Source: Convolutriloba macropyga
Lineage: Eukaryota
Direction: 5' to 3'
Length of the DNA: 64,000 bases
Assembly (NCBI RefSeq): GCF_964194025.1
Contig: NC_134478.1
Location: forward strand, 12,710,001 to 12,774,000
The notes beneath the pieces are model-generated. The model worked only from the letters and a program-made list of their open reading frames with translations, did no database searches and had not been told where the DNA came from. The stretch's first letter is position 1, and every line of letters begins with the position of its first letter. Positions 26,778-58,265 of this stretch are shown one piece after another. The translations under genes and the position numbers were made by a program.

Positions 26778-29700
26778 TTATTGGAGAAGATCATCAGGCG
26801 CCGCAAATTTGATTTTCATTTTGCGGATAATGTCCAATCGTTTCTGCCAATTGTTGCAATAATCCAAATTCTTTTCTTTGAACAGGTACCCGTGACACGC
26901 CATGCTTGCATGCAGAGCCATTTGTCGAACAAACATTGACAAGTTTCCGTCTGAAATGATCTTTTCCTCTTTGGCCGCGTGAAGAACCCAGGGTTCCAAC
27001 TCCCGTTTGCAGATTAATTTGACCGAATTCCGCTTCGCATCTGTTGGCGTCACGACAATGCTAACGAAGTTCAGCTCAGTTTTTATAATCGAGTTTGAAA
27101 GCCTTGGCGTTTTTGTATCATTGTACAAAATCAGAACGGCATCGTTGCCGAGGAGACCTTTCTTCCGGTTGCAATCGGGATCATCATTCGGATCCGGAGT
27201 CGGGATCAGTGTCGCAACATGAAACATCATTTGGAACAAATCATCGATCCAGCAAATTGCCAGTTTTCCATCTCGTTCATGTTGCGATTTATCCAATCCC
27301 GCATTGTAAACTTTCTGTTCTTTGTTGCATTCTGAAAGAGTTACTACCGATCCCAAGCTTCTGATAAATTCGGTGTATCTTTCACTTCCACAAATATTAG
27401 ACAATACGGCACTTTCGTCAAACTCCTGACCTTCCGCTACGTACAATACTCCGACTTTGTGCGTATTAAAAGGCAGACAATTATCAAAATAATTCAACTC
27501 ATCCTTCAAGTCTTCTGAATCTGGTAAACAAAATATTGGGTTCGAGTTACCTCTCTTGCTGTCCAAATTTGAATCTCGACCTTTATTTTTCTCAAAAGAC
27601 TGCTGATGGATAGCTCCAATCAGTTGATAGAAAACGGTCGAAGGATTACTGAAGTCAAAGTTTGACGACTTTGTCAAATCCGAGTTCGAAGAGTTTAGAC
27701 CTCGAGTCACTATTCTCTGTCTGATCCTAGAAGGTGCAACGTTTCCAGTTGCAACAACTGAAGATGCATGACGTTTCTTTATTATTGCTTCCTTCGATTC
27801 ACGCTGGCTCTGTGCTTGATTCATTCCGTAAATTGCGTTACTGTTTAAACTTCTCACAATACGAATATCGTTCGAAGCGATATCGTCAAGAGAGCGAGAT
27901 CTGAGCATGTTTGAGAAGTCAAACGAAACTTTAGGCTTCCCTCCAGATCCTGAGACGGACGGCCGCTGCACTTCAGTTGTCATCGTGAAAGTGCTTCCTG
28001 TAGAAATGCATTCCATCTCGGTACTCTCGCTTATTCCACAAAAATCGGTGCTTCCACAACTTGAAGCAGCAGTCGATTGTTGGCTGTAATCACTGGAACT
28101 GTTCACAACACCAACTAAAAGAGAACTCAGATTTTCCAAACCAAAATCACTGGTTACTAATGAGCTGGTACCGCCCTGACTTTGGGTTCTAAGAAGATAC
28201 GACAGGTCACCCGTAGCTGTTCTAACATACACTTCCGCCCACCTCGAAATCCAACACGGACAATGCTTCACAGCTTCGTTTGAAGTCAAGAACGTCGGCA
28301 ATTTAGTTCTCTCACGTTCGCAAGTCTGCAGACCTTGTTTCGCGTGAGGTGTTTGAGGAGTCGATTTATGTCTCTGTCTATCAACTTTGGGCTTCGGTTC
28401 TCTTTTCAAGACCTCATTGGCTCTTTGATTGCAGTCGCCACAAAGACCGTTTGATTCCAACTGAGCGCTATTTCCACTAGTTGTGATTGTTATGATCCGA
28501 TTATTTACAACCCAAGTTCGAGAAACTCCATTTGACAACAAGAATTTGCTGATCTCGCATCGCTTTGGTTGTGCCAGAGTTTCGCAGAATACATGACGTA
28601 AAATCACATCCATACAAATTTCAAGTGCATCAATTTGTAAACTTAAAATTTCGCTCAGACTGGACTTGGACGAGTCCGATTTGGTGATCAATTTTTCAGC
28701 CGCCTCAAAACTATCTCTTGATGTCTCCGTCGATGTTTCGGCATTGGCTTTACCCGGCTGATCAGTTTTCGAAGAGTTTCTCAAATGTTCAGCATACTGC
28801 AACTTTTTCTGTAAATTTGCGATTCGGTTCTGAAGTTCTTTTAGAATCAGTTTCTTCAGTTGAACCCGAAATGCTACCTTACACTTCAAGAACCACACAC
28901 AAACTAAGTTAAGAGCAACTTCTACGCAATATTTAGAGTACAGTTCATAGTCTACAAATTGCAAAATTATGGTCAAAATCTGTTTGTGGTCTTCATTGGT
29001 CAAATTATGGTGCAGAGAGGGCAACTGTGATAGCATGAAAATCAGGTCTAGCGCTGGAACCGACATTGTTCGAGAACTTCTGACCAAGAAAATGTTGGAC
29101 AAAATTGTGGGTAGCCACTTAATGCAAATGTCGGGGCACTCCATGAAACAAACTGACAACGCACAAAGACACGTCACACCATACTTGGAATCCTGAATGG
29201 CACTAGTCAAACACTCGACAATTCTTCTTGCTTTAGCTCCTAAAGGGTACGTAACTAAACAAATCAAACACTGGAAAACTAGACTTCGAAAGTTACCGAA
29301 TGTTTCTAAATAACTGGAAGAAGTTTCAGCGCTGGAAAAGAATCGAAATTTGAACCCGGTTGGTTTCAAATCGATTAGAATACAGAGTTCGATAACTAAC
29401 TGCTCCAGATATGTTCTGCCTAATGATATGGTACCCAAATCATCGTTACCCTCGATAACATTTACTTCCACAATCTTTCTATGAAAAATTCTCTCAACGG
29501 GTTCCTGGCACTGCAGAAAGGGAGGAACCGATCTGACCAGCTCCTCAAAAATCCTATAATCCTTTTGCTCTTTCAAGGAATTGAACAGAAGTTTGAGGCC
29601 TAGAGTCAATGCATTTTCCACACTCACAATCGAATTTTTTTCTGGCATACACAGCATTGCATCGTGCAATTTCAGGAGGTCGGAGCGGATCAAGAATTTC

Positions 29701-31454
29701 GACAGCTTCACTTGCAAGTCCGGGGTCCAGAACTTGAGAGCAGTTAAACGCAGTAACGCATGCCCAAACGCAAGAAGTACATCAGATATTGCTTGTATTT
29801 CTTCGGAAGATGATTTTATTTCATGCTGACTAATTGCAATAATTTGATCACTTAACATCAGTGTTCTTTGCAAAAATGTTGTCAAGAGTATTCTATGACT
29901 TGGTGCTGCGGTCGAAAAATCTTGTGATTCTAGAATCTTGGCGAACGATTTCATGAACGATGAAAAATCACACATTTTGTATGTTAGGTAATCAAAATAG
30001 TATGTCAGAATTAAAGTTGCATGATCGTCGTCTAAAGCCAACCAATCTACTTTTGCAACGCAGCAAAGCGTAACTTCGTGAATCTCTTCAACATGTAGTA
30101 TGAATAATCTGTTGGTCCTGAATTCTGATAACTTTCGGAAGAGAATGTTCAGTTCAACTGTTTCCGCATTTTGCGAGAGAGCTCCAAATTTGTTCAAATA
30201 AAACTCATACCTAGGTATCCATTTGTCATCAAGGACTCTGTTACATAAGAACAAAAAATCAAAGGCCTCTGTCAAAAATTTGATTGATAGAAAGTTTAAA
30301 CCAACGTCCACAACTTCTAGAAACGTCAACACCTCGAAACCAGTCGGTCGTAATGTAAAGTGAGCCAGTTCCTCAGAGAAGAAATATTCCAGTTGAGTTG
30401 CAACTTGGTTCAGAACTTTGACTTCACTTTGCTTTTCTCGATACAAACAAAGTGATAATATGTTGAGAACCTCTGGTAGTTCCGAAGTGACTATTGGAGC
30501 TTTGTCATTCACACGTTCGACTATCTTACCGAGATTTAATGTAACTTTACATATAGAAGAATCGATGTCTCGTTCAGTTTGGTCCACCGAAATTTTCTCA
30601 ACAACTTTATAAAGAGTATCACAAACGCCAGTAATGTCAATTTCAATTCTTGGGTTTTCAATCAAAGTCAGATAATGGTCAATAAACTGCACACGTAAAA
30701 AGCTTAATTCAAGGTTTTTTAACAACACATTATAAAACCTTAAAGCACTACTGCCCCAGTGCGGTGTTCCTTTCACACAAGCCAGGAAATTTAAAACCGC
30801 TTGAAGACTGCTTGAGTTAGCTTTGGTCACTAGGTGAACAATCTGCTCTATTGATTCAGAACAAAACACACCAGAATCATTTGTTAAAAAATCTAGCACC
30901 AAGTTGGCAGAAATTTTGAACCTGTCTTCGCTATTAACATTGAACTGCAGATGACATATTAGAACTTCAATAAACTGACAGCGAAATTGATGACCAAACA
31001 ACTGGCCATGCTTTTTCAAATTTTGATTTATCAGCAACACCAGTTCATCGGATAGACACAAATGCACGATTCCGGCAAATGACGCAACAAAGAGCTCCAG
31101 GACGTTCACCAATTCTATTTCAAACTCTGGCACATCGATTTCTTCCAGGAGAAGCGTTGCTAGTTTGATTATGTGCCTCCAAATAGATTCATTCCAGGTA
31201 TCGAGTTCATCGAAATTACGACACAAGAAATGAAGCAAGCATTTCTTGACAAAACTCGACGATTTCTTTCGATAATGAACCTCACGCGTAAATGACACTA
31301 TTTCCGACCAGACTTCATCGGCGTCAGTAGCAGACACATCCGTGAGCGGTGCCCAAATGGAAGCAAATTCATTCTCATTCAGTTTCAGAGTTTCCAAATT
31401 GGATGTCAAATCCTTCAGTCGTTTCAAATGTTGGTCCAGTTTGGCTTCATTTTC
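26778..31454 (-). CDS. TSC2: Tuberin (TSC complex GAP subunit), main exon; the 5' exon(s) lie upstream
   Basis: TSC2-specific SRTWVVNNRIITITTSG and WAEVYVRTATGDLSYLL. Rap-GAP domain THKVGVLYV...GSERY...FHVATL...LGND and C-terminal WQKRL. No in-frame ATG near the ORF start; candidate acceptor tttgttaag|GAA at 31454. Confidence 0.93.
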   Translation of the reverse strand, partial: ENEAKLDQHLKRLKDLTSNLETLKLNENEFASIWAPLTDVSATDADEVWSEIVSFTREVHYRKKSSSFVKKCLLHFLCRNFDELDTWNESIWRHIIKLATLLLEEIDVPEFEIELVNVLELFVASFAGIVHLCLSDELVLLINQNLKKHGQLFGHQFRCQFIEVLICHLQFNVNSEDRFKISANLVLDFLTNDSGVFCSESIEQIVHLVTKANSSSLQAVLNFLACVKGTPHWGSSALRFYNVLLKNLELSFLRVQFIDHYLTLIENPRIEIDITGVCDTLYKVVEKISVDQTERDIDSSICKVTLNLGKIVERVNDKAPIVTSELPEVLNILSLCLYREKQSEVKVLNQVATQLEYFFSEELAHFTLRPTGFEVLTFLEVVDVGLNFLSIKFLTEAFDFLFLCNRVLDDKWIPRYEFYLNKFGALSQNAETVELNILFRKLSEFRTNRLFILHVEEIHEVTLCCVAKVDWLALDDDHATLILTYYFDYLTYKMCDFSSFMKSFAKILESQDFSTAAPSHRILLTTFLQRTLMLSDQIIAISQHEIKSSSEEIQAISDVLLAFGHALLRLTALKFWTPDLQVKLSKFLIRSDLLKLHDAMLCMPEKNSIVSVENALTLGLKLLFNSLKEQKDYRIFEELVRSVPPFLQCQEPVERIFHRKIVEVNVIEGNDDLGTISLGRTYLEQLVIELCILIDLKPTGFKFRFFSSAETSSSYLETFGNFRSLVFQCLICLVTYPLGAKARRIVECLTSAIQDSKYGVTCLCALSVCFMECPDICIKWLPTILSNIFLVRSSRTMSVPALDLIFMLSQLPSLHHNLTNEDHKQILTIILQFVDYELYSKYCVEVALNLVCVWFLKCKVAFRVQLKKLILKELQNRIANLQKKLQYAEHLRNSSKTDQPGKANAETSTETSRDSFEAAEKLITKSDSSKSSLSEILSLQIDALEICMDVILRHVFCETLAQPKRCEISKFLLSNGVSRTWVVNNRIITITTSGNSAQLESNGLCGDCNQRANEVLKREPKPKVDRQRHKSTPQTPHAKQGLQTCERERTKLPTFLTSNEAVKHCPCWISRWAEVYVRTATGDLSYLLRTQSQGGTSSLVTSDFGLENLSSLLVGVVNSSSDYSQQSTAASSCGSTDFCGISESTEMECISTGSTFTMTTEVQRPSVSGSGGKPKVSFDFSNMLRSRSLDDIASNDIRIVRSLNSNAIYGMNQAQSQRESKEAIIKKRHASSVVATGNVAPSRIRQRIVTRGLNSSNSDLTKSSNFDFSNPSTVFYQLIGAIHQQSFEKNKGRDSNLDSKRGNSNPIFCLPDSEDLKDELNYFDNCLPFNTHKVGVLYVAEGQEFDESAVLSNICGSERYTEFIRSLGSVVTLSECNKEQKVYNAGLDKSQHERDGKLAICWIDDLFQMMFHVATLIPTPDPNDDPDCNRKKGLLGNDAVLILYNDTKTPRLSNSIIKTELNFVSIVVTPTDAKRNSVKLICKRELEPWVLHAAKEEKIISDGNLSMFVRQMALHASMACHGYLFKEKNLDYCNNWQKRLDIIRKMKIKFAAPDDLLQ

Positions 31455-32420
31455 CTTAACAAAAATGACGGATTTTCAAAAAAAAACTAATTAAAATTTC
31501 CGGCTTTAGATATCACTGAATTGTTAAGTAGAGTGGGTTACCTAACATATTGCACACTAAATTAATCAGATTGAGATGTCTGAATAAATTTTAAGAAAAC
31601 TAACCTCAATTTTTAGATCACGTCTGCAGTCCGGAGAAACTTTGTCAAACATAAGACACCTAAAGTAGTTGTCGAACATAAGACACCCCGTCACAACAAA
31701 CAATTTTTTTTCCTCCTTTTTGAAAAGGTGCCGGGAGTTAATAACAAAACTTCGAGTCTGATAGCAAGCCAAAAACTTGAAACTTGAACTATTTAAGTTC
31801 AAGTTTGAAGGATCGTCAATTAAAAACTTTATTACGAACGTTTTCGAACTGAGTTCATCATCAGGTTATAAAGAACACAAAATGCTTAAATGAAAAGCCA
31901 GAAAATAAAATGCAAATCACTTAAATCCACTCAGTCAATGAAATTAAAAACGAACTTTTAAATACCTACAGTCGTATCTACAAAAATTTACATCCAGATG
32001 TTTAAAAATGTTTAAACTAATGTTCCCGTTTCAGAAGCCATCGAAGATGCTCTGCGATGTCTTTACCCCAGCGATACCCCCTCCCAATATTGATAGTTCA
32101 ACGTTTAAGCTCCTATTCGAACTGGCTGTCACAAATGTTTATTCTAAAAGTAATGGTAACTGGAATTGCCAAAGGTTTGGCAATAGGCGCTTCCCTGCGT
32201 TATATTGTCCCAAATTTATATGAAAAGTTTTGAAGAGAATGAAAGTGCCAGAGGCTGTTGAAAAGCTAAGTCAATTATCAAATCCAACTTAAAGTTCTTC
32301 TAATTACAATAAGTGCTGAGATTGAGATGAGCTCTGGAGAAACAAAACTTCAAAACCAAAATGCTCTAACTGACATAAGCAAGTGTAGAACAGCAAAACT
32401 TGCACGGAAAATTTGAGAAC

Positions 32421-32937
32421 TGCTATCACATGAAGTGTCAAAATCTAAGTAAAGAGCAATACGAAAAAAATTTGAAATTTAACTCACTGATAACCACACT
32501 ACTATAGTAGCCAACCGTGCGCAATACTCTATGTCTTTGGCTAATTGAGCGTGGTTCTTGGTTAAAATGCAAAGTTAGAAGTAACATTGTCAAGAAGATT
32601 AAGGTAAAAAAAAGTTTGTTTAAATAAACTATGATTTAATAGAGTGGTTAGCTCTGATGGTAAGTTTGATGTTTAATGAATGAAAATAATCCTCGTTTTG
32701 ATCGGTGCCCAATATCGGTTCTATCATCGTGGTAAATTAACCAAGTCAACAAAGATATGTCAGTTTCGTTGATTTCGCTCGAAGCCCGAGCTTTGTCTAA
32801 TCACAGGTCTCTTCACTTTTCTGACACCTATCAATCTTGTGTCAGCCATAAAGCAAAAAAAACAAGTTTTAAACTAAATCTTTACCCTTGAAACCCCAGG
32901 CCTTTAGTACATCTTTTTTATATACGTGTGATACTCA
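32421..32937 (-). repeat. Putative 3' LTR of element 1
   Basis: Begins just after the polypurine tract and is bounded by the imperfect inverted repeat TGCTATCACA (32421) / TGTGATACTCA (32927-32937). No second LTR is present in the window to confirm it. Confidence 0.45.
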
Positions 32938-33066
32938 GACTGCCCCCTTTTAACAGGAATAGAGTGCACCACTCACGCAAAAATTAATAATATTTTTTGT
33001 TCACAGTTCTTGTTATGTGGACGTCCTAATATACAAAAATTTTGTAGAATCATAGGGACAGTTTGA

Positions 33067-34280
33067 TTATTGGTTTTGGTTGTTCGTAACTTTTTCTGCC
33101 TCGTCAAATCCAAATATTTTGTACGCTTCCCGTGCCGCATCATTTGTCAGAATTTGATATGCCCGGTTGATGGTCTTGAAGAATTCTTCGTCTCTACCAG
33201 CATCAGTGTGCGTCAACAGGCTCATTTTGTGGTAGTGTTTCTTGATCTAATCTTTGAAGCAGAACTTTTTACCAACAAAAATCTCGTATAGCGTTGCATA
33301 CCGGTTCATAATGTTTTTGTTCCGAATCTCGGATAAATATTTCTCCGCGGCCATGGTTTTTGGCATTTTGTTTTTAAGAGTACTCTTTTATCGATCAATG
33401 AGAGAACCTTTTTTCCGGCATTCGTTGGCCAAATACTGATTGTAGTGTTCTCGCTGCTCAAGCTCTGACCGCAATTGGTCATTCACGTTCTCCATATTTT
33501 CGATTGCTTCGAACTTCTTAGTAGCTCTGACTTTCAAATGGCCAACTCTTGCTTCATTAACTCAATGGATTGCTCCTGTTCAGCTTTTCTGGCTGCTGCT
33601 GCCTTTAAGTTATCTCGTAACTACTCACAATCGGCAATCCATTTGCCCAAAGCTTCTTTTGTTGCCTCTTTGGTCTTCTTGCAATAGTTATCCAGTTCTT
33701 GTCGAAGCTCGACGAGGTCTTGTTGAATTGAAGAGTTAGTACTCTTCAACTTCTCTAACTGTAAGCACTGGTTTTGCAGTTCCACTTCAGTCTGCAGAGC
33801 ACGCGACCGAACATTGGCTGGTGCCAGATGTTCTAGCGTAGAAAATTTCTGAGTCCGCGACAGACAAGATTCCACTCTATACACTCCCGGGGAAATCCCT
33901 GAAAGAACTTTCCACAATTCTGGCGTGTAATAAACATAATCACCAATCTGTGGAATCTCGTTACCTGCTATATTGTATAAAAAACCCTTTTTGCTTCTAA
34001 ATTGTCTCGATATTTTCAGTTTTGAACTCAAGATTTTTCCTTTTTTCCATTTTTGGTCTCGGACTTGAGACCTTCCCGTTTTTTTGTCTGGATTCAAGAT
34101 GATTTTTTGGTCTTGAACTCGAGACGTTGCCTTTTTTGGTGTTGAACTCAAGACAACTTTTTTGGTCTCGAACTCGAGACGTTCTTTCCTGTTTTTAGTC
34201 TTGAACTCAAGACAACTTATTTTTCTTTCACTTTTTTAGTAAACAACTAACTCTTTCAATGACTCTTTTTCTTCAATCAT
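33067..34280 (-). pseudogene. Accessory ORF of element 1: Lys-rich repeats, coiled coil and C-terminal DnaJ (Hsp40 J) domain
   Basis: Manual translation of 33294-33109 gives TLYEIFVGKKFCFKD*IKKHYHKMSLLTHTDAGRDEEFFKTINRAYQILTNDAAREAYKIFG. It joins ORF 33621..34151 through several in-frame stops and one frameshift near 33525. The start is approximate. Confidence 0.8.
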
Positions 34281-34379
34281 TTTCTTTTGTTCTCGGCGTT
34301 CATTTATTAATTTGAGTAATTGTGTTCCCGTTATGGGGTCAAGATTAAGCAATAGTTATCGCCAAGATGCTCCATTAAT

Positions 34380-36160
34380 AACTAATGCAAAATAGATGAG
34401 CAAGGTAGGAAAATTTTTCACAAATTGAAAAATGAGGTAGACAAATAAGACTGACACAGCAATGTCCTTCGCTTTCAACTAAATGTATAAGCTTTCGATT
34501 CTTAAATTCTGAAAAAAATGTTATTTCATTTGTTAGAAAAACTTGTTGTTGGAACTGATCGTTCCAGTGAATAAAATTTTTATGACTGTATTTTCCATCA
34601 GAATCTCGGAATGCTTCCTAACTGATAATTCCTTTAATATTCTGGGGAACTGTTCGAGCAATTTGACTCTGTTTTACGTCTGATGTGGAGAAAAGGCTGC
34701 GATGCAGGTTTTCATCATTTACATTTAAGTTACTATTCATCGAACACTGATATATCTCGCAATTGAATTTCATCAGCATTGTTGAAAACTGCCGTCTTCT
34801 AATTTGACAACATTTGGGTACAGCGGGTTGTATGCAGCGATTGTATAATTATGATACAAAACTTTTGTAATAGGGTCCTTATATCAAATAAAAGAAAAAT
34901 TCTGACCCTCTACTAACACAGGAACTTCTGTGCAAAAAGGAAAATTAGTTATTGTTGCTACCATCTTGATACATTTATGAACATATAACACAGATCCTGC
35001 TCTTTCGACGTGAGTTCCTTTCTCGAAGAACACTACTGATGGACTAACTATGTTTTTTGATAATTCAAGCATTGTTTGAATTCTTAGTCGTTGATTCTCG
35101 CATTGGAGCGTTCTAAGTTTGAAAAAAATTTTCCTCTCTCTTTGAGAAGTTCAAAATTAAAGGTTTCAACAACCCTTGAAAGAAGTATCTCCATTGTTAT
35201 TTTAAGATTACCAATTTTTAGTTCTGACCTCTCCTCGGAATGAAAAACATCTGGAACTCCGATAGTTTTTACCTGCTGTCCACACAAACTAATTGCTGTT
35301 TCCTCTAAGATTTCTATTGCAAAATCTTCATATTTGATTTTGTATAAAATTTTTCCGCCGAAAAAAAGGTCTTGTTGTTACCAAAAATGTTTGCAGGGTC
35401 CTCCTTATTAAAGCGTTTGATCATTCGAAAGTTTTGCTCACCTTGATTTTCAAAAAAATAGTTTCCTAGGTCGTCTTGAGAACATGTGGTTTTGATGAAA
35501 ATAGTATTTGAGAATTATAGGGGATCCTTAAAATTTAATAGGTTTCTTTGTAGCACCTTCCCCCAAATTGTTATTGTTGCTTTGATTTCCACTTTTCCGA
35601 TAAGTTTTCTCCTAAGGGTGAAACCCACTCTACAGGCTCTGCATACATAGCGCCTTCGCGCCCATTTTTTGCCATGAAGCTTTGACTATACTCTTTGACA
35701 TAAGTGGTTCCGCTGGCTTGCTGTAAAATTGTTTCAGTTAACAGCCTGTTGACTTTGAAGGTCATATCTCCAAAACCTGGTGTGGCAAAATTTTTGTTCT
35801 GCCAAATATTTCTACAAACTCCCTCGTTTAAAGGGAATTTTGATTTTAGTATTCTCGAATTATTTTGTGAGAAAAATGACACCGTCATATATGTTGCTTT
35901 TTTAATCTGCCGACACTGTATATACCGCTTCATACATGTCAGTTTTTAGTTTTATCTGAAGCTGAACCTCAGCATATATCAAACTGCATTCTTCTCTTGT
36001 TTTCGATACTCGAATTTTTTATCACAGTTTGAGCTGTGATCTAGAGAATAGATCTTTGTGGATACGATATTGTCAAAATCATAACCGTATAACTTGATAC
36101 AAAGTGATGGAGAAGCAAAAATGGCTAGCAATGCCAGATACGAACATATGGATACTCCAT
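34380..36160 (-). pseudogene. Envelope glycoprotein of element 1, chuvirus-G / class III fusogen-like
   Basis: Signal-like SYLALLAIFASPSLC followed by LYGYDFD...YSL...NCD; CGQQVKTIGVPDVF; RAGSVLYVHKCIKMVATITNFPFCTEVPV...DPITKVL...NPLYP; C-terminal TM IAVSVLFVYLIFQFV. Confidence 0.65.
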
Positions 36161-38160
36161 CACACGATGATCCGGATGAACTCGCCTTTCTTTTCGATTC
36201 CCTTATTTCTTTCTGGACTTTCTTGAAACAACAACATCATCAGTTTCCTGACTGCTACAATACTCTTCGTCTTGCTCAGTAAAGTAAATCGTTAATTTCT
36301 TAAGCAACGATTTCAATCGGCTGCTAGACCTTTTAGCCATTTTTGGTGCCTTGGGATCCCTATTAATCTTTTCTTAAGTATTTTTTTATTACTAATAGAT
36401 TCCTGTGTTTTTTTCTGGTTTTAGAATTTTTGTTTCTGCTGCTTTTTTTCCAGTGTACTCTGTAGGTTTTGATGAAGTTGCTCCTCCACCCTCGCAACAT
36501 ATTTTCCCTTCATTTGCCCTTTAGAGGTTATTTGCTTTGATTTTTAGCTTCATTCTCCAACGTGTCATTTGCAACATTTAGTGAATTGTTAGCATCCACA
36601 GCTTCGGATTGATTTTCTGTGTTTAACTTGCTTTCACTGTCTGTTGATGATTCTATTTCAATTATATCACCATCGGTGGAGCTGTTCAAATCGGTATTCT
36701 TCTGCTCCTTAAAGATTATTTTTAATTTCGCCTGATGCTCAGTCGTGAATGGCTTTTCTCGTGCTTTATATATTTTCAGTCGGTCAGAATGGACCTTAAT
36801 AGTTTTACTCGTATTTTTATCTTCTACCTTGAAATTTAAATCGTTTGTAATTTCAACTATTATGTATGGTCCTCTATAGAAAGGAGTAAATTTTCTTATT
36901 TCTCCTTTTTTAACCGTTGGGTTGAAAACTAACACTTCTTCGCAAATTTAACGCTCGGTCCACACTTACTGCAATCATAGTAGGTCTTCTGGCGTTCTTG
37001 TTCGACATCCATATATTCTCGCATCAACTGATGCGTTTCCTGTAGTTTCTGTTTCATTGTGAATACATAGTCACTTGGTGTTGCATATATTGCAGTCTGT
37101 GGTTTGCTATAGATGCAGTCTATAGGTACCGGCAGTGGAAAACCCAGTACTACATACGCTGGGCTGTTTGTTGGTACAATATGGATTGATGATCCAATTT
37201 GGTCCAATCATTTTGATACTGGCCTATGTATTTGGAGATACAATCTTCTATTGTCCGAGTTGTTCTTTCAATCATTGCGTTCCCTCGTGGTTGGTAGGAC
37301 GTTGTTGATGTCCTCTGAATTGATTCCTAGTTCACTGCAAAGACTACGAAATAAATTTGACATAAATTTCGACCCTTGGTCACTGTGTAAATTGACTGGA
37401 CAGCCGAATCTCGCTATCCAGTGTTCAACAAACGCTTTTGACACGGTTTTGCCTCTTGCTTGGTTAAAACTACTGCTTCGTACCACTTACTGAATTGATC
37501 ACGGATAAGCAAAATGTACTTGTTTCCCTGAGACTTGGGAAGTGCACCCATGATATCAAGAGATAGAAGCAAAAATCGATGACTAGGTTTCCATTTTGTG
37601 AGTGAGGGCCGACTTTCTGCTTAGTGCCTTTCCTTTTTAGGCACACATAACAGCTTTCTATCCAATTTCTTACGTCTCTTCTCATGAACGGCCACTAAAA
37701 CCATTCACAATCCCTTTGATATGTTTTCTCAAACCCAAAGTGACCTGCGCTAGGAGAGTCATGCAGCAGCTCAAGCACGTTGCACACTCTCTCCTATGGT
37801 ACAAGCATTTGGTAAACAGTCTCAAAATTTGGTTCTCTTTCGTGTTTACGATGAAAAATCCCGTCTATGAAAAAAAGATTTGTATACTGAACCCAGTATT
37901 TGCATAACTCCTTTGATGGTCCATTTTTCATTTGCCGTGGTACCGGTCTTTTTTTGTTTAGTATCCAGGAGTATACTTCTTTGAGTTTATTGTCATTTTG
38001 CTGCGAATCTCGCAGTTTTCCTGCCTGCAGTTTGTCTAAATGCCAACCTCGACTACCATAATCGGTATTGTCCTGCCCTGCGTCAATCGCGATAGCGTTA
38101 ACAAATGCTATTGGTTCTTCGTCTTCTGTGTTTATGCGCAACAGACAGTCAGTGTGTGAG

Positions 38161-38705
38161 AACAAGGTCTCCACTGGGCTGTTTCCGCCATGCAAATTTT
38201 TACGTAGCTAGCTGAAAAAAAGCCATGCTATATTCAGCTAAATTTCGTTTATATACGGGCAATTTCGTTTGAAAAGAATTGGACTCCCTTACTCAAAACA
38301 AATCTTGCATTCCTTAGATGCAAGATTTTGCTGACCTTAACGGCAACATTTTTCTCTCTTAAAATTCACTGATGTGTTTGACTGCTCGGCACGACTCTCG
38401 TGCAACAAACCTTGACTTCTGTTCTCGCCTCCTGGTGTTGGCGATCGCGCTCTACTGTCGCAATTGGTTCGTCTATTATCAGCTCTGCTTCTGTTATAGC
38501 TATTATAGTTTCTATTTCTATCTCCGGTTTGTCTTGAACTACGCTCACTTCCGCGCAAAAACTTTTTTGCCTGCTCTAAACTTGAGGTTAAAGTTAAATT
38601 TCCCAAGTTTTTCTATCCATCTTGCATCCGTACCATCTGATTCTTTAAATCTATAGATCCAGACAAGAGCCCGGTGGTCCGTTATAATCAAAAAGTGCTG
38701 ACCAA
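38161..38705 (-). repeat. Internal duplication (RNase H piece fused to gag C-terminus), paired with 40666-41197
   Basis: Two diverged direct copies of about 540 bp share the same RH-to-gag junction. Confidence 0.85.
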
Positions 38706-41400
38706 TTAAAAAGATTTTAAAATGTTGAGTGAAATGAACGATTGCAAATAATTCCTGCTTTCTGGCTGAATAATTTCGCTGACTTTTACTCAGAGTTTTG
38801 CTAGCATATGTAATAACTCTATCCTCCGTTCGTTGCTTTTGGGTAAGAATCGCTCAATTCCTGTCAACGAATTATACGTAGTTAATGTATACGGATCCCT
38901 ATCGTTTGGATATCTTAAAATTGAGGCGTCCAAAAGCTTCCTGTTAAAATCGGTTATCGAATTTTTGCAGTCTACACTCCATTCATATTTATTTGACTCA
39001 TTCAGCAAACTTTAAAGAGGTTCTGCTGTTTTTTCGAAACCCGGAATGAATTTCTGATAAAAACCCACAAGGCCTAGAAAGGCCCTGACGCCCATCAAGG
39101 ATGATGGTTCTTTCATCATTTCTACCGCTCTTACTTTCTCTGCGTCTACCTCGACTCCACTCTCGGATATAATGTGCCCCAAGAAGATGACACGTTTTTG
39201 GATAAAATTGCCTTTTGATCACTTAATCTTTATTCCATTCTCCGCTAAACTTTGGAAAATCAGTTCTACTCGTTTCAGATGTTCGTTGAAACGTCTTCCG
39301 AAAACGATAACGTCATCTAGATACACTAGAGCCAGTTTGTTTGACAGTCCAGCAAAAATCAACTCACATAGGTTTTGAAAAGCACCCGAAGCAAACGCTA
39401 GTCCCATAGGGAGTGTTTTCCCCTTATACAGGCCGAGAGGCGATATGAAAGCTGTTAAATTCTGACTCTTTTCCTTGATCGCCATCTGAAAGTATCGCGA
39501 CAAGAGATCTATGTTCGTGAAATACATGTTTGCCTACAGTGAATCAATAACCTCATTAAATCGTAGTAAAGGCCAGCATATTTTTTCTAGTTGTTTTTTC
39601 AGACCACATTAGTCTACAACCAAGCGATAGTTTCCATCCTTTGTTGGTACAAGCAATGATGGTGCTGCCCAGTCGTAATTTGTTGGTTCGACTAAGTTGT
39701 TTCGTTCCGAGTATTCGACAATTTTATTCATGGCTTTTCTTTTCTCAAAGCTCATGCTGCCGTATGTACGTCTGAATGGAACAGCATCCTTTTTAATTTT
39801 ATTTTATGAAAGATTCGGTCGCAAAACCCCATATCATTTGAGTTTCGAGAAAATATTACTTCATGTTTTTGTGCAAAGTGACTTCACTCTTGTCATTTCC
39901 TCGCAAGACAAGCTGAGACAAGCATTGAACTCGAGTTTGCATTCTTCTCAAAATCAAATTCATCTCTAGGTTTTGTTTTTTCGTCAGAGTTATTTCGTTG
40001 TATTCTTGAAATTTTTTTTGGTTTCCGCACTGGCGATTCTCGCATTTTTGTAAATTTTCATTTGTTATAATGTAGGGTCCAGAACTCGAACCCATACGAC
40101 ATCATCAGCCCTGTCATTCAGCGACCTCGCTATTAATAACTGTGATTTGTCTTCAAACTCTTTCATTGTTTCGACTATAATTTCTGTTTGCTGTGTTATG
40201 TAACCTTCTTCATCGATAACTGCATTCAATGAAACCTTCGCAGCAACGAGGTAATTCGTGATCCTCAGCAGCAATTAAAAACAGATTTTTATTACTTCGT
40301 TGTGATGTGGACAGTTGTAAGGTTTTCCCAATTGTCCGGTAAAAGATTTCGCTCTTTCTGAGGTTTGAAATACAGTGAAAATTATATAAGAATTTCACGC
40401 CCAAAAAACAAGGCGTTATCTCAATTTTGGTCACTAGAAACTCAACTGTTATCTCAGATGTAAATTTTTGAAGTTGGACCTGAATAGCATTTGAACCTTT
40501 GACAGACATTTTTCCATTGTTTGAAGCTATTATATTTTTACTGCACACTCTGATTAGGCTCGGTTCTCCCAGTTGCTGTTAGAGTGTGTCGCTTAAAAGA
40601 TTAACACTACTTCCACTATCAATTAGGGCCATTATCAGTTTGTATTTTATCATTTTTTTTTGGCAAACAAGGTCTCCACTGGGCTCTTTCCGCCACCCAA
40701 ATTTTTATGTAGCTAGCTGAAAATTAAGCCCCGCCATATTGAGCTAATTCTCGTTTAAATACGGGCAATTTCGTTTGAAATGATTTGGACTCCCACATTC
40801 AAAACAATTCTTGCATTCCTTAGATGCAAGATTTCGCTGAACTTAACGGCAACATTTTTCTCTCTTAAAACTCACCGCTCTGTTTGACTGCTCGGCACGA
40901 CCCTTTTGCGACTAATCTCGGCTTCTGTTCTCGCCTCTTGATGCTGACGATCGTGCTCTACTGTCGCAATTGGTTCGTCTATTATCAACGCTGCTTTTGT
41001 TATAGCTATTATAGTTTCTATTTCTATCTCCAGTTTCTCTTGAACTACGCTCACTTCCGCGCAGAAACTTTTTTCTCTGCTCTAAGTTTGGTGTCAAAGT
41101 TAAATTTCCGAAGTTTCTCCATCCATCTTGCAACCATGACGTCTCTAGATCCAGACAAGAGCCCGGTGGTCCGTTATAATTAAAAAGTGCTGACCAAGTA
41201 AAGGGAAATCTATTTAAAAGATATGTAGATGACATTATTTGTTGAGTAAAAGACGACAGAACAAAACCAATAATTTGTTGCAAATAGACAATCTTTTGAA
41301 TAGAAACTTGATGTTCACAATGAAGTACAGAGAGAAGAAAGAAAAAGGAAATAACCTTCCTGTATATTTCAGTATAGGTTACGGAACAAAGAAATGTTAC

Positions 41401-55500: not shown

Positions 55501-56344
55501 TTTAAATCTCCCGCAACAACAACCTACTCAAAATATTTAATTATAATAAACTTTTCCATGATTTTCGAAACTTATAATTCAATCTTTATCTGCTAGCTCG
55601 GATTGTTCGCCATTTCTCTCTGTATTTCTGAGTAATCGAAAAACAATTTATTATCAGAGGTTTTCTTTAACACCGAAAACCGGAAACAACTCGAATTTTA
55701 GCCAATCAGAATCGAGATACGGATTTAATGCTCTGTGACACATTTAGCTGCAGCACAACTTCGTTTTTACTTTGTGTTTACTCAACGCAACAAAGGTAAT
55801 CCGTTAAAATTATTGTGTGATTTGAGTCCACATTAAAAATTCGACATTTGTTTTTGCCATTCCAGGTTCCAGACGTTCTGAAGAAAAGTCAACAATGTTT
55901 TTATCCCAATCACCATCTTTCCCCAACATCATTCCAAAGAGTAACTAACTGTAATTAATTTAATGACAAACAAAATAAAATTAACAAAACACTCCCTTTT
56001 GCTTTAGAACCTCCGATTTCTCTCAAAAACAACAGCAACCGGATTACAGAAAACTATGGTTATCAAAATAAAAATAGAGCTGTATAACTGTTTTAAATCC
56101 AAATTGTTAAACCAAATAAAATTTGAAAACGAGAGCCATCAAAGCTTGTTTAGTATTTTTGAGCACACCCCCCCTCGATGTTTTCTATGCCCCAATTACA
56201 AATCATGTGTTGCTAAATTGCAACTTACTCATGAAAAAATTAGCACGTCCGCTTGGGGAACGTAGTCGATATGTTTTCCACATATTTGGGAGGTGGAAAC
56301 AAATAAGGTCCTATTTTCTCAAAGTTTTTATGTTAATCATTTGA

Positions 56345-57050
56345 AGTGAGAGTTGAGCAGTGAGTTGTGAGTTGAGTTGAGAGTGAGTTGAGTTAGGTAT
56401 TGAGGTGAATGGTGAGTTGTGTGTTGAGTTCAGTGGTGCGTTGAGTGTTGAGTTGAGCAATGATTTGAGTGTTGAGTTGAGTGTTGAGTCAAGAATTGAG
56501 TTGTGTGATGAGTTGAGAGTTGAGATGTGTGTTGAGTTGAGCACTGAGTTGAGTGTCGAGCTGAGAGTTGAGGTGAGTTTCGAGTTGAGTGTTGAGTTGT
56601 GTGTTACGTTGAGTATTGAGTTGAGTGTTGAGTTGAGCATTTAGTTGTGTGATGAGTTGAGAGTTGAGTTGTGTGTTGGGTTGAGAGTTGAGTTGTGTGT
56701 TGAATTGAGATTTGATTTGAGAGTCGAGTTGAGTGTTGAGTTAAGTGTTGAGTTGGGAATTGAGTTGAGTGGGGAGTTGGGTGGTGTTTTGAGTGGTGAA
56801 TTGAGTTTTGAGTTCGCAGTTGAAAAGAGAATTGAGTTGAGCGATGAGTTATCTGTTGAGGTGAGTGGTAAATTCTGTGTTGAGTTCAATAGTGAGTTGA
56901 GTGTTGAGTTGAGCACTGAGTTGAGTGTTGAGTTGAGAGTTGAGTTGTGTGTTAAGTTGAGAGTTGAGTTGTGTATTGAGTTGAGAGTTGAGTTCTCTTT
57001 GAGTTGAAATTCGAGTTGAGTGTTGAGTTGCGTGTTGAGTTGAGCATTAG
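56345..57050. repeat. Minisatellite, 12-bp unit GAGTTGAGTGTT
   Basis: About 700 bp of degenerate tandem copies; it produces the spurious NSTL/VELS ORFs. Confidence 0.95.
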
Positions 57051-57154
57051 AATGTGTGTTGATTTGATAGTTGATAAGATAGCACAAAATAAGAAAAGAT
57101 TAATTCCGTCTTAGCATAACGATACTTAATCTCTCGTGTGTGTTTAATTATAGT

Positions 57155-57380
57155 CTCTGATCAGAAGTCAGTTCGGTCTGGAAAGTCTGATCAGAGGTCA
57201 GTTCGCTCTGAAAGGTCTGATCAAAGTCTGTATATAGTCTGGACAATGGTCTGAATCTGAGTCTTCTCATAAGCGCACTTTAGTTTGGACCAGAGTCTTG
57301 GTACCGTCTGATCACAAGTTATCTTGGTCTGGAAACTCTGATCAGAGGTCATTCCTTTCTCAATAGTCTGATCATAGCTC
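57155..57380. repeat. About 30-bp tandem repeat (TCTGATCAGAGGTCAGTTCGGTCTGGAAAG)
   Basis: tctgatca recurs at about 30-bp periodicity. Confidence 0.75.
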
Positions 57381-58265
57381 AATTTGGGTTCGGACCTCAA
57401 CCTGGGAACCTGGGAAATCATCGACACGAAATCATGAAGGAAGGAGTTGCAATATTGGTGAACAACTAGTATTTCCAGGTAAAGTTTTTTATTTTATAAA
57501 ATTTATTCGAAAAAAAGATGCTATTCAATGGAATTGAGTGCTATTTCTCTTTGTCGGCATTTATTAAAATTTTTAACTTTTTGGAAAAATTGCAAGGAAA
57601 AGTGGTTAAGGGAAAAATGATCCGGGACTTTTTTTTTCAGCTTGGACTTTAGAATGGTGATCACGAATTTTCCAAATAGAGATGCGGAAAAAGATAAAAA
57701 AAAGAAGCGGAAACAAAACGTTGGAGTAGAGAGAGGTTGCTATTTTTGAAGAAGCAATAACACTTTAAGCTCTTAAAATTTCTTTTAATTATTTTTGCTG
57801 ATTTATAATTGATTGAGGATACTAAATTTCATATAATTATTTTCAATTATAATCGATTTTATGTTCCAAATTGGCAAATATAATCTGTTATAATCACAAA
57901 TTTTTTTGGTCATTTTAATTAATTATAATGATGTAAAAAAGAAGTTTTTGGCTGCGGGCTCGAACTTGGGCATCTCTTATAACCCCTTCTCATGTTCTTT
58001 CTTGCTCCTCAAGGCTACATTTCTCTACCCAAGTATACGTTGAACAAGTAGAGCTTTTGGTCAAGCTATCTCAAGCTTATCTTATGCACAATCTACATTA
58101 AGTTTTCCTCTCCCAATTTTCTAACATACACGTTGAATAAGTAGAACTAGTGTCGAATTTATATTTTAAACAAATTACAATTTACATTAGTTTTACATTT
58201 ATCTTGACAATTTTCCCCGGGAAAAATTTGATCCGCGTATCCTGTAAAAGAATTAAGTTATCTTG

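Follow-up and report, generated by a model that had tools for sequence, protein, structure and literature searches.

Retroviruses and retrotransposons borrow host chaperones, and a J-domain that bears the HPD motif stimulates Hsp70. Among the closest described systems, as far as the accessible portions of these sources go, Ty3/gypsy elements with a gB-type env, named 'ancient errantiviruses', are widespread (Chary and Hayashi, PMC13524379). Extra genes have been described for the bdelloid elements Juno and Vesta, which carry GDSL esterase and DEDDy exonuclease ORFs (PMC5408684), for the Cer1 CERV, whose extra gene product comes from a spliced mRNA (PMC10309623), and for an orchid LTR retrotransposon with an AlkB domain (PMC9289625). 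J-domains occur in 11 families of RNA viruses, where they were proposed to aid folding or assembly (10.1101/2022.02.15.480533), and polyomavirus T antigen carries a J-domain in cis to a binding module (PMC5721967).

Here, we analyzed a 64,000-nucleotide stretch of the Convolutriloba macropyga genome (NC_134478.1, positions 12,710,001 to 12,774,000; contig C11 of the 1.18 Gb searched), hereafter the window. A first-pass annotation had proposed that it holds an enveloped Ty3/gypsy retroelement with its own Hsp40 J-domain gene. We find that the element belongs to Ty3/gypsy (Metaviridae) and that its fourth gene, ORF4, encodes a J-domain protein under strong purifying selection.

The window copy and its relatives

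The copy in the window is decayed and truncated at its 5' end; the element it derives from is ~9.7 kb long and runs gag, pol, env, ORF4, polypurine tract (PPT) and LTR. Only the 3' LTR is present: no 5' LTR, primer binding site or 5' gag was found in the window, and the copy carries an internal duplication. Its features are as follows.

32503..32939, minus strand: 3' LTR of family A, ~437 bp; 32503 is the end of copies, and the stretch stands at both ends of two-LTR copies
32940..32951, minus strand: PPT, read from the sequence, at the same position in families A, B and C
33067..33967, minus strand: ORF4, broken in the window (~280-300 aa in open sister-family copies)
33109..33294, minus strand: J-domain of ORF4 (Pfam PF00226)
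33202..33210, minus strand: HPD site, HTD in the window copy, read from the sequence
33310..33790, minus strand: coiled-coil stalk of ORF4, bounds approximate, predicted as a continuous helix in the family C model
33803..33965, minus strand: N-terminal four-strand SH3/Tudor-like barrel of ORF4 (family C model, fold matches)
33968..33984, minus strand: candidate splice acceptor (T-tract and AG) immediately before ORF4, from the aligned AG in other copies
33985..34235, minus strand: spacer with A-rich repeats of variable number
34236..36200, minus strand: env (class III / gB-like fusion protein), broken, with its own stop at 34238-34236 (tblastn of family B env)
36316..40819, minus strand: pol (protease, RT, RNase H, integrase), broken (Pfam pieces)
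~38162-38600, minus strand: duplicated gag-end/protease piece within pol
40747..41202, minus strand: gag 3' remnant, with a stray RNase H piece before it

ORF4 of this copy is interrupted by stops at 33623, 33390 and 33249 and by frame breaks near 33539, 33281 and 33255; the stop within the J-domain is in frame (33249-33247), and the ORF ends at 33069-33067. Upstream of the J-domain lie remnants of RT, RNase H and integrase, all decayed, and a weak match to PF24664 in env. Elsewhere in the window, one open frame of 1565 aa, whose product has Tuberin and Rap-GAP domains (26778-31475, minus strand; TSC2-like), lies ~1 kb beyond the 3' LTR, and 56301-57400 is a tandem repeat with a 12-bp unit and strong GC skew.

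The J-like peptide quoted in the first-pass annotation was present on the minus strand at 33294-33109 and, with the stop read as X, matched the DnaJ model PF00226 at 39.2 bits (E 7.7e-10, cut-off 27.8), but part of the quoted helix I-II text was read in a shifted frame, owing to the breaks near 33281 and 33255. The env transmembrane region, the PPT (32951-32940) and the 3' LTR (32939-32503) were located where that annotation had put them. Its account of the gene itself needed amendment: the coiled coil and J-domain held up, but an N-terminal beta-barrel (~33965-33803) had been missed, and the Lys-rich repeats assigned to ORF4 are the A-rich repeats of the spacer, between the env stop and the ORF4 start (~33967), outside the open ORF4 of most young copies.

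Querying the genome with 800 bases over the J region, we obtained 593 first-look candidates; of the 40 that were scored, most were 82-88% identical to the query. Ten long stretches defined the family A unit of ~9.7 kb (LTR of ~437 bp, leader, gag, pol, env, ORF4, PPT, LTR), with LTR pairs 81-90% identical in seven of the ten. Target duplications of 4 bp flanked six of 12 copies inspected, and the primer site matched host tRNA-Ser(GCT) genes (45 exact pattern matches in the genome; ARAGORN called tRNA-Ser(GCT) at all four primer-matching loci tested). Because LTR pairs, primer site and target duplications bound the unit, the J-domain lies inside the element; in two-LTR elements it sits between env and PPT, within the true LTR boundary. 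A cluster of ~40 tRNA-Ser(GCT) genes at 2.70-2.80 Mb on contig C10 is likely the primer source of these elements. The LTR termini are not TG...CA: those of families A and B are TG...TA and those of family C TA...CA (L073, L074, L075, L083, L090).

A PF00226 search of the genome returned 910 candidates; the 150 that were scored comprised ~18 host-type genes followed by a long run of near-equal matches. From this search came 12 loci (L059-L070) of family B, a younger sister of A, with an open frame of at least 270 aa in ten and HPD in all 12, figures that are biased by the choice of these loci on J score. Full-length family B copies have LTR pairs 96.7-99.8% identical, a gag of 351 aa, an env of 677 aa and an ORF4 of 304-312 aa, stop to stop. 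Family C (LTR pairs 97.4-99.8% identical) has a gag-pol of 1686 aa, an env of 689 aa and a 280-aa ORF4 that starts from an ATG just after env. Family D, reached via P0184, showed the same order of env and ORF4 in 8/8 loci. The genome thus holds four families with one gene order, two of them young with open ORF4s, and the gag-pol-env-ORF4 layout that had been postulated for an ancestor is directly visible in the young copies, with intact, HPD-bearing ORF4s between env and LTR in open copies of families B and C. The pol order in open B and C copies was protease-RT-RNase H-integrase by Pfam, and the same pieces occur in the window. Among B, C and D, identity is 73-77% in the RT core, 27-38% in env and 28-33% in ORF4; env of B and C is 31% identical over 660 aa. 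For four other env-bearing families, which lack the J-domain, RT identity is 30%, and they lie on the opposite side of the tree.

To keep the choice of copies independent of J, we also picked 30 loci by env DNA alone, the window included, some of which overlap the loci above. The J segment was present in 28 of the 30 (27/29 without the window) and the barrel in 29; both loci without J were tandem partial duplicates cut inside it, and in one other copy the J segment was inverted. These counts, and the occurrence of the segment in four families, exclude a one-off insertion.

Several derivatives of the elements were also observed. At ~87.47 Mb on contig C1 (L039/L040), at least seven units of ~626 bp, 92-96% alike, form a tandem array; each unit fuses an LTR plus primer site to the 3' half of the J-domain. 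Four loci (L076, L009, L107, L114) are short derivatives, bounded by two LTRs or headed by one, that retain ORF4 or the 3' end; at L114 more of the tRNA sequence follows the primer site before the jump, which speaks for faulty strand transfer and against splicing.

Anatomy of ORF4 and selection on it

ORF4 is a gene separate from env and encodes a barrel, a long coiled coil and then a J-domain, which matched PF00226 at 60.5 bits in open B and 52 bits in open C copies. HPD was retained in 12/21 family A copies, 15/15 family B copies, 21 of the 24 family C loci that were parsed (of 30) and 4/8 family D loci, and in 24/29 of the env-selected copies; its context is HPDAGG in families A and B and HPDKGG in C and D. 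AlphaFold modelled the family C protein as, in order, a four-strand barrel (pLDDT 87.8), a long helix (residues 83-197, pLDDT 80-90) and a four-helix J-domain, with an overall pTM of 0.30.

Fold searches with the barrel placed PWWP, Tudor, KOW, chromo and SH3 barrels in a tie at Z 5.5-7.5, with none at Z>=8 and no Foldseek match at E<=0.001, and named no ligand. The top match was a PWWP domain solved with ssDNA (Z 7.5, rmsd 4.8, 69 aligned); SMN Tudor aligned over 50 residues (Z 6.8, rmsd 1.6), and the matches include Tudor structures determined in complex with methylated peptides of PIWI or histones. The barrel had no match in Pfam, Tudor included, and no usable match in the ESM Atlas. Two of its arginines are nearly invariant in 30 aligned sequences, and, judged by eye, only about half (2/4) of the Tudor aromatic cage positions are aromatic in the alignment.

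Class A/B Hsp40s begin with a J-domain, followed by a G/F-rich region and substrate-binding beta-sandwich domains, while class C proteins combine a J-domain with a separate binding module. ORF4 has a C-terminal J-domain, and open B and C copies gave no G/F region, zinc finger or DnaJ_C match. No hydrophobic segment, and no signal or membrane segment, was detected in ORF4. By its predicted domain layout, ORF4 is a class C J-protein; of the 'Hsp40 gene' first proposed, the J-domain stands and the classical Hsp40 does not.

We estimated dN/dS from pairwise comparisons of natural copies (10-21 of family A, 8-15 of family B) with the within-family distance subtracted. Net A-versus-B values were 0.12 for gag, 0.12 for pol, 0.13 for env and 0.09 for ORF4 (90% bootstrap 0.07-0.14), and within ORF4 they were 0.06 for the barrel, 0.12 for the coil and 0.02 for the J-domain (0.01-0.07). 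Within family A, dN/dS was 0.76-0.89, a range expected of copies that decay once inserted, and any one ORF4 stop occurred in at most three of 21 copies. ORF4 is therefore under strong purifying selection, as strong as that on pol, while env and ORF4 have diverged to ~30% identity.

Net A-versus-B dS was 0.70 in ORF4 versus 0.20-0.22 in gag, pol and env, and the LTRs of A and B (L074) are ~75% identical versus 81-83% for the body. Because divergence in ORF4 and LTR exceeds that of the other genes, the 3' module (ORF4 and LTR) has likely been exchanged between lineages, independently of gag.

A quick tree of J-domains (82 columns) placed the 13 element-type domains on one side of a branch with SH-aLRT 100, apart from 13 non-element J-domains of this genome and 40 others; 42 of the 63 inner branches are open, and P0190 (no HPD) and fragments were left out. 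The library sequences nearest to the element J-domain are HPDKGG-type DNAJA-like proteins, one of them from maize. We also noted P0118 (4 members), a DUF1907 protein whose last ~55 residues are the tail of the family C J-domain, which may be a true chimera or may reflect faulty gene calling at an insertion.

Env, the post-env slot and expression of ORF4

Env matched PF24664 at 39.9 bits in open B and 52.7 bits in open C copies (cut-off 27), and gave no match to PDB sequences. In a simple hydropathy scan, B env passed at its N-terminal segment only and C env at its C-terminal segment only. In the open copies of both families env ends at its own stop (677 aa in B, 689 aa in C). In most family B copies the spacer lies between the env stop and the in-frame stop that precedes ORF4; its A-rich repeats range from 0 to 6 repeat cores per copy and are absent in family C. 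An env relative 43% identical to that of family C also occurs outside this genome.

Other families in this genome with a PF24664 env carry different extra ORFs after env (L121, L122, L125, L128; L123, L129; L124, L126, L127, L130). The env is 897-902 aa at L121, L122, L125 and L128 and 769-830 aa at L123 and L129, and the extra ORFs include one of 274-288 aa accompanied by two short ones, a coiled-coil ORF of 611 aa and, in some families, ORFs of 130-180 aa that are Cys-rich and RING-like (Pfam RING matches weak). This suggests that the post-env position is a general slot for accessory genes.

An acceptor AG stands at the aligned place before ORF4 in seven of the nine family A copies read (window included) and in all ten copies each of B and C, and family D has a T-rich, acceptor-like stretch there. 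The leader holds a GT donor in 7/8 family B copies (full GTGAG in 6/8), in five of six readable family A copies and in the one family C copy read. Because leader donor and acceptor are conserved, ORF4 is likely translated from a spliced subgenomic RNA. In families C and D, an ATG stands where the barrel begins. In A and B no in-frame ATG precedes the first barrel strand; no ATG to start ORF4 was found in the B leader exon, nor a donor in 5' gag to supply one. Among the loci mapped, deleted genomic copies showed no donor-to-acceptor joint, their joints being short-homology jumps at the primer site or random deletions, and a family C copy compared with four contig sets, whose kind is unspecified and which are silent on expression, gave none among the 15 joints listed (186 more).

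A profile search over 1.84 billion proteins recovered close copies and, beyond these, barrel-coil-J homologues at 25-45% identity (P0127, P0132, P0135 with 14 members, P0140, P0142, P0251 and fragments) from ENA and Logan assemblies. The barrel was kept in all full-length homologues, and we infer that these proteins, too, are probably encoded on LTR elements. Six were sought in this genome, and five did not turn up as such: the best matches here were 38% identical for P0132 and 30% for P0140, and P0251, P0145 and P0273 gave none with these queries at the cut-offs used. IMG/VR scans found none, and a metagenome scan gave 80 loci matching essentially the J-domain only, 0 with the barrel. Viral J proteins in the fold search were J-domain-only matches, none at E<=0.001 and none with the barrel-coil-J layout.

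Proposed function and comparison with known systems

We consider it probable (about 0.85) that ORF4 is a targeted Hsp70 adaptor with J activity, through which the elements likely recruit host Hsp70 themselves. The protein, probably translated from a spliced subgenomic RNA, would be cytosolic or nuclear; the barrel would bind a client, and the J-domain, in cis at the far end of the stalk, would trigger ATP hydrolysis by Hsp70 on that client. The client may be the genomic RNA of the element or its Gag/Pol particle, with Hsp70 helping assembly, reverse transcription or uncoating. We favor this own RNA-protein particle, at a little under even odds, because of the conserved arginines and the nucleic-acid-binding barrels among the fold matches. 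A possible but less probable client is a host silencing complex, either PIWI/Tudor granules or methylated chromatin, on which a Tudor-like barrel would dock so that Hsp70 could dismantle it. T antigen acting on Rb-E2F offers a parallel, and Tudor, PWWP and chromo barrels fill the fold matches, among them the Tudor domains with methylated PIWI or histone peptides. In flies, piRNA biogenesis involves Hsc70, Hsp70 and the J-protein Droj2, and Hsp70 can also collapse it, according to the accessible part of one study (10.1101/423210). Two further observations weigh in the same direction: exchange of the 3' module between lineages is not predicted by a strict own-particle client, and RING-like genes in the same slot of other env families here fit host modulation better. 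However, the barrel is strongly conserved (dN/dS 0.06) with no visible arms race, it lacks a Pfam Tudor match and, by eye, about half of the cage positions are not aromatic. The fuller proposal, that the clade resembles complex retroviruses and that ORF4 is a T-antigen-like remodeller whose Tudor-like reader steers Hsp70 onto the piRNA or chromatin silencing machinery and dismantles it, we hold to be unlikely, though if true, it would be the first chaperone-based anti-silencing factor of a retroelement.

The remaining explanations fare worse. That ORF4 acts from the cytosol on Env trafficking or budding, for instance by using Hsc70 to uncoat or remodel host coat or scission complexes, is improbable: ORF4 does follow env in 4/4 families, and the baculovirus BJDP and many giant-virus J proteins appeared in the fold search, but ORF4 has no membrane anchor, nothing links the barrel to Env, and such co-location is expected of any spliced 3' gene. 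Binding alone could demand the conserved HPD and helix II-III, as if the J-domain were a decoy or sponge for Hsp70 or host J-proteins with no specific client; we give this still less credence, since the barrel is as constrained as the J-domain and is kept in every full-length homologue, which argues for a targeting role. Very little speaks for an Env whose cytoplasmic tail is the coiled coil and J-domain, with ribosomes crossing the repeats by read-through or frameshift. In decayed A copies one frame does seem to span the transmembrane region into the repeats, and A/B ORF4 has no obvious ATG, but we rejected this fusion, together with the Lys-rich N-terminus of ORF4: env has its own stop in open B and C copies, the barrel of families C and D opens with an ATG, and the repeats belong to a spacer in which their number varies and which in C has none. 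Least credible of all is a host DNAJ retrocopy, inserted once and carried as a functionless passenger; the window copy itself is broken, which speaks for it, but the env-selected copy counts across four families, the J-domain dN/dS of 0.02 and a clade apart from host J-domains refute it. The targeted adaptor remains our preferred reading, and the whole clade appears to encode its own. With barrel, stalk and J-domain in one small, testable protein, its partner may mark either a chaperone-dependent step of the retroelement or a new route to disarm transposon silencing.

A selected J-domain accessory gene in LTR elements is, as far as our searches extend, new, while gB-type env, extra ORFs and viral J-domains were already known. 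In full-text searches and word searches of retroelement papers, we found no LTR element with a J-domain gene; such an annotation may still exist in Repbase, Dfam, subscription journals or bioRxiv supplements, which lay outside the scope of these searches. With the ancient errantiviruses, in the accessible part of PMC13524379, the present elements share the gag-pol-env order, LTRs, a tRNA-Ser primer site, a class III-type env (PF24664) and recent multi-copy spread in an invertebrate. They differ in having a fourth, selected gene after env; the accessible text of that paper has 0 occurrences of DnaJ or J-domain, and its 7 supplementary files 0 of DnaJ. Juno/Vesta, Cer1 and the orchid AlkB elements likewise show an extra gene captured by an LTR element, but in the portions available none is a J-domain gene (0 occurrences of DnaJ in PMC5408684), and in Juno/Vesta the extra ORF replaces env, whereas ORF4 follows it. 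Enveloped retrotransposons of invertebrates can thus carry accessory genes, as complex retroviruses do.

Among J-domain carriers, RNA viruses, giant viruses and phages with DnaJ, and baculoviruses with BJDP all resemble ORF4 in having captured a J-domain; as far as the sources consulted extend, these carriers are not reverse-transcribing, and none was seen with the barrel-coil-J layout. Polyomavirus large and small T antigen shares with ORF4 an HPD J-domain (HPDKGG in T antigen and in families C and D, HPDAGG in A and B) in cis to a binding module. According to the available part of PMC5721967, that domain is N-terminal in a protein of a DNA virus, whereas it is C-terminal in ORF4, and we draw the likeness without a claim of kinship. 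The elements described here extend virus-encoded J-domains to reverse-transcribing elements.
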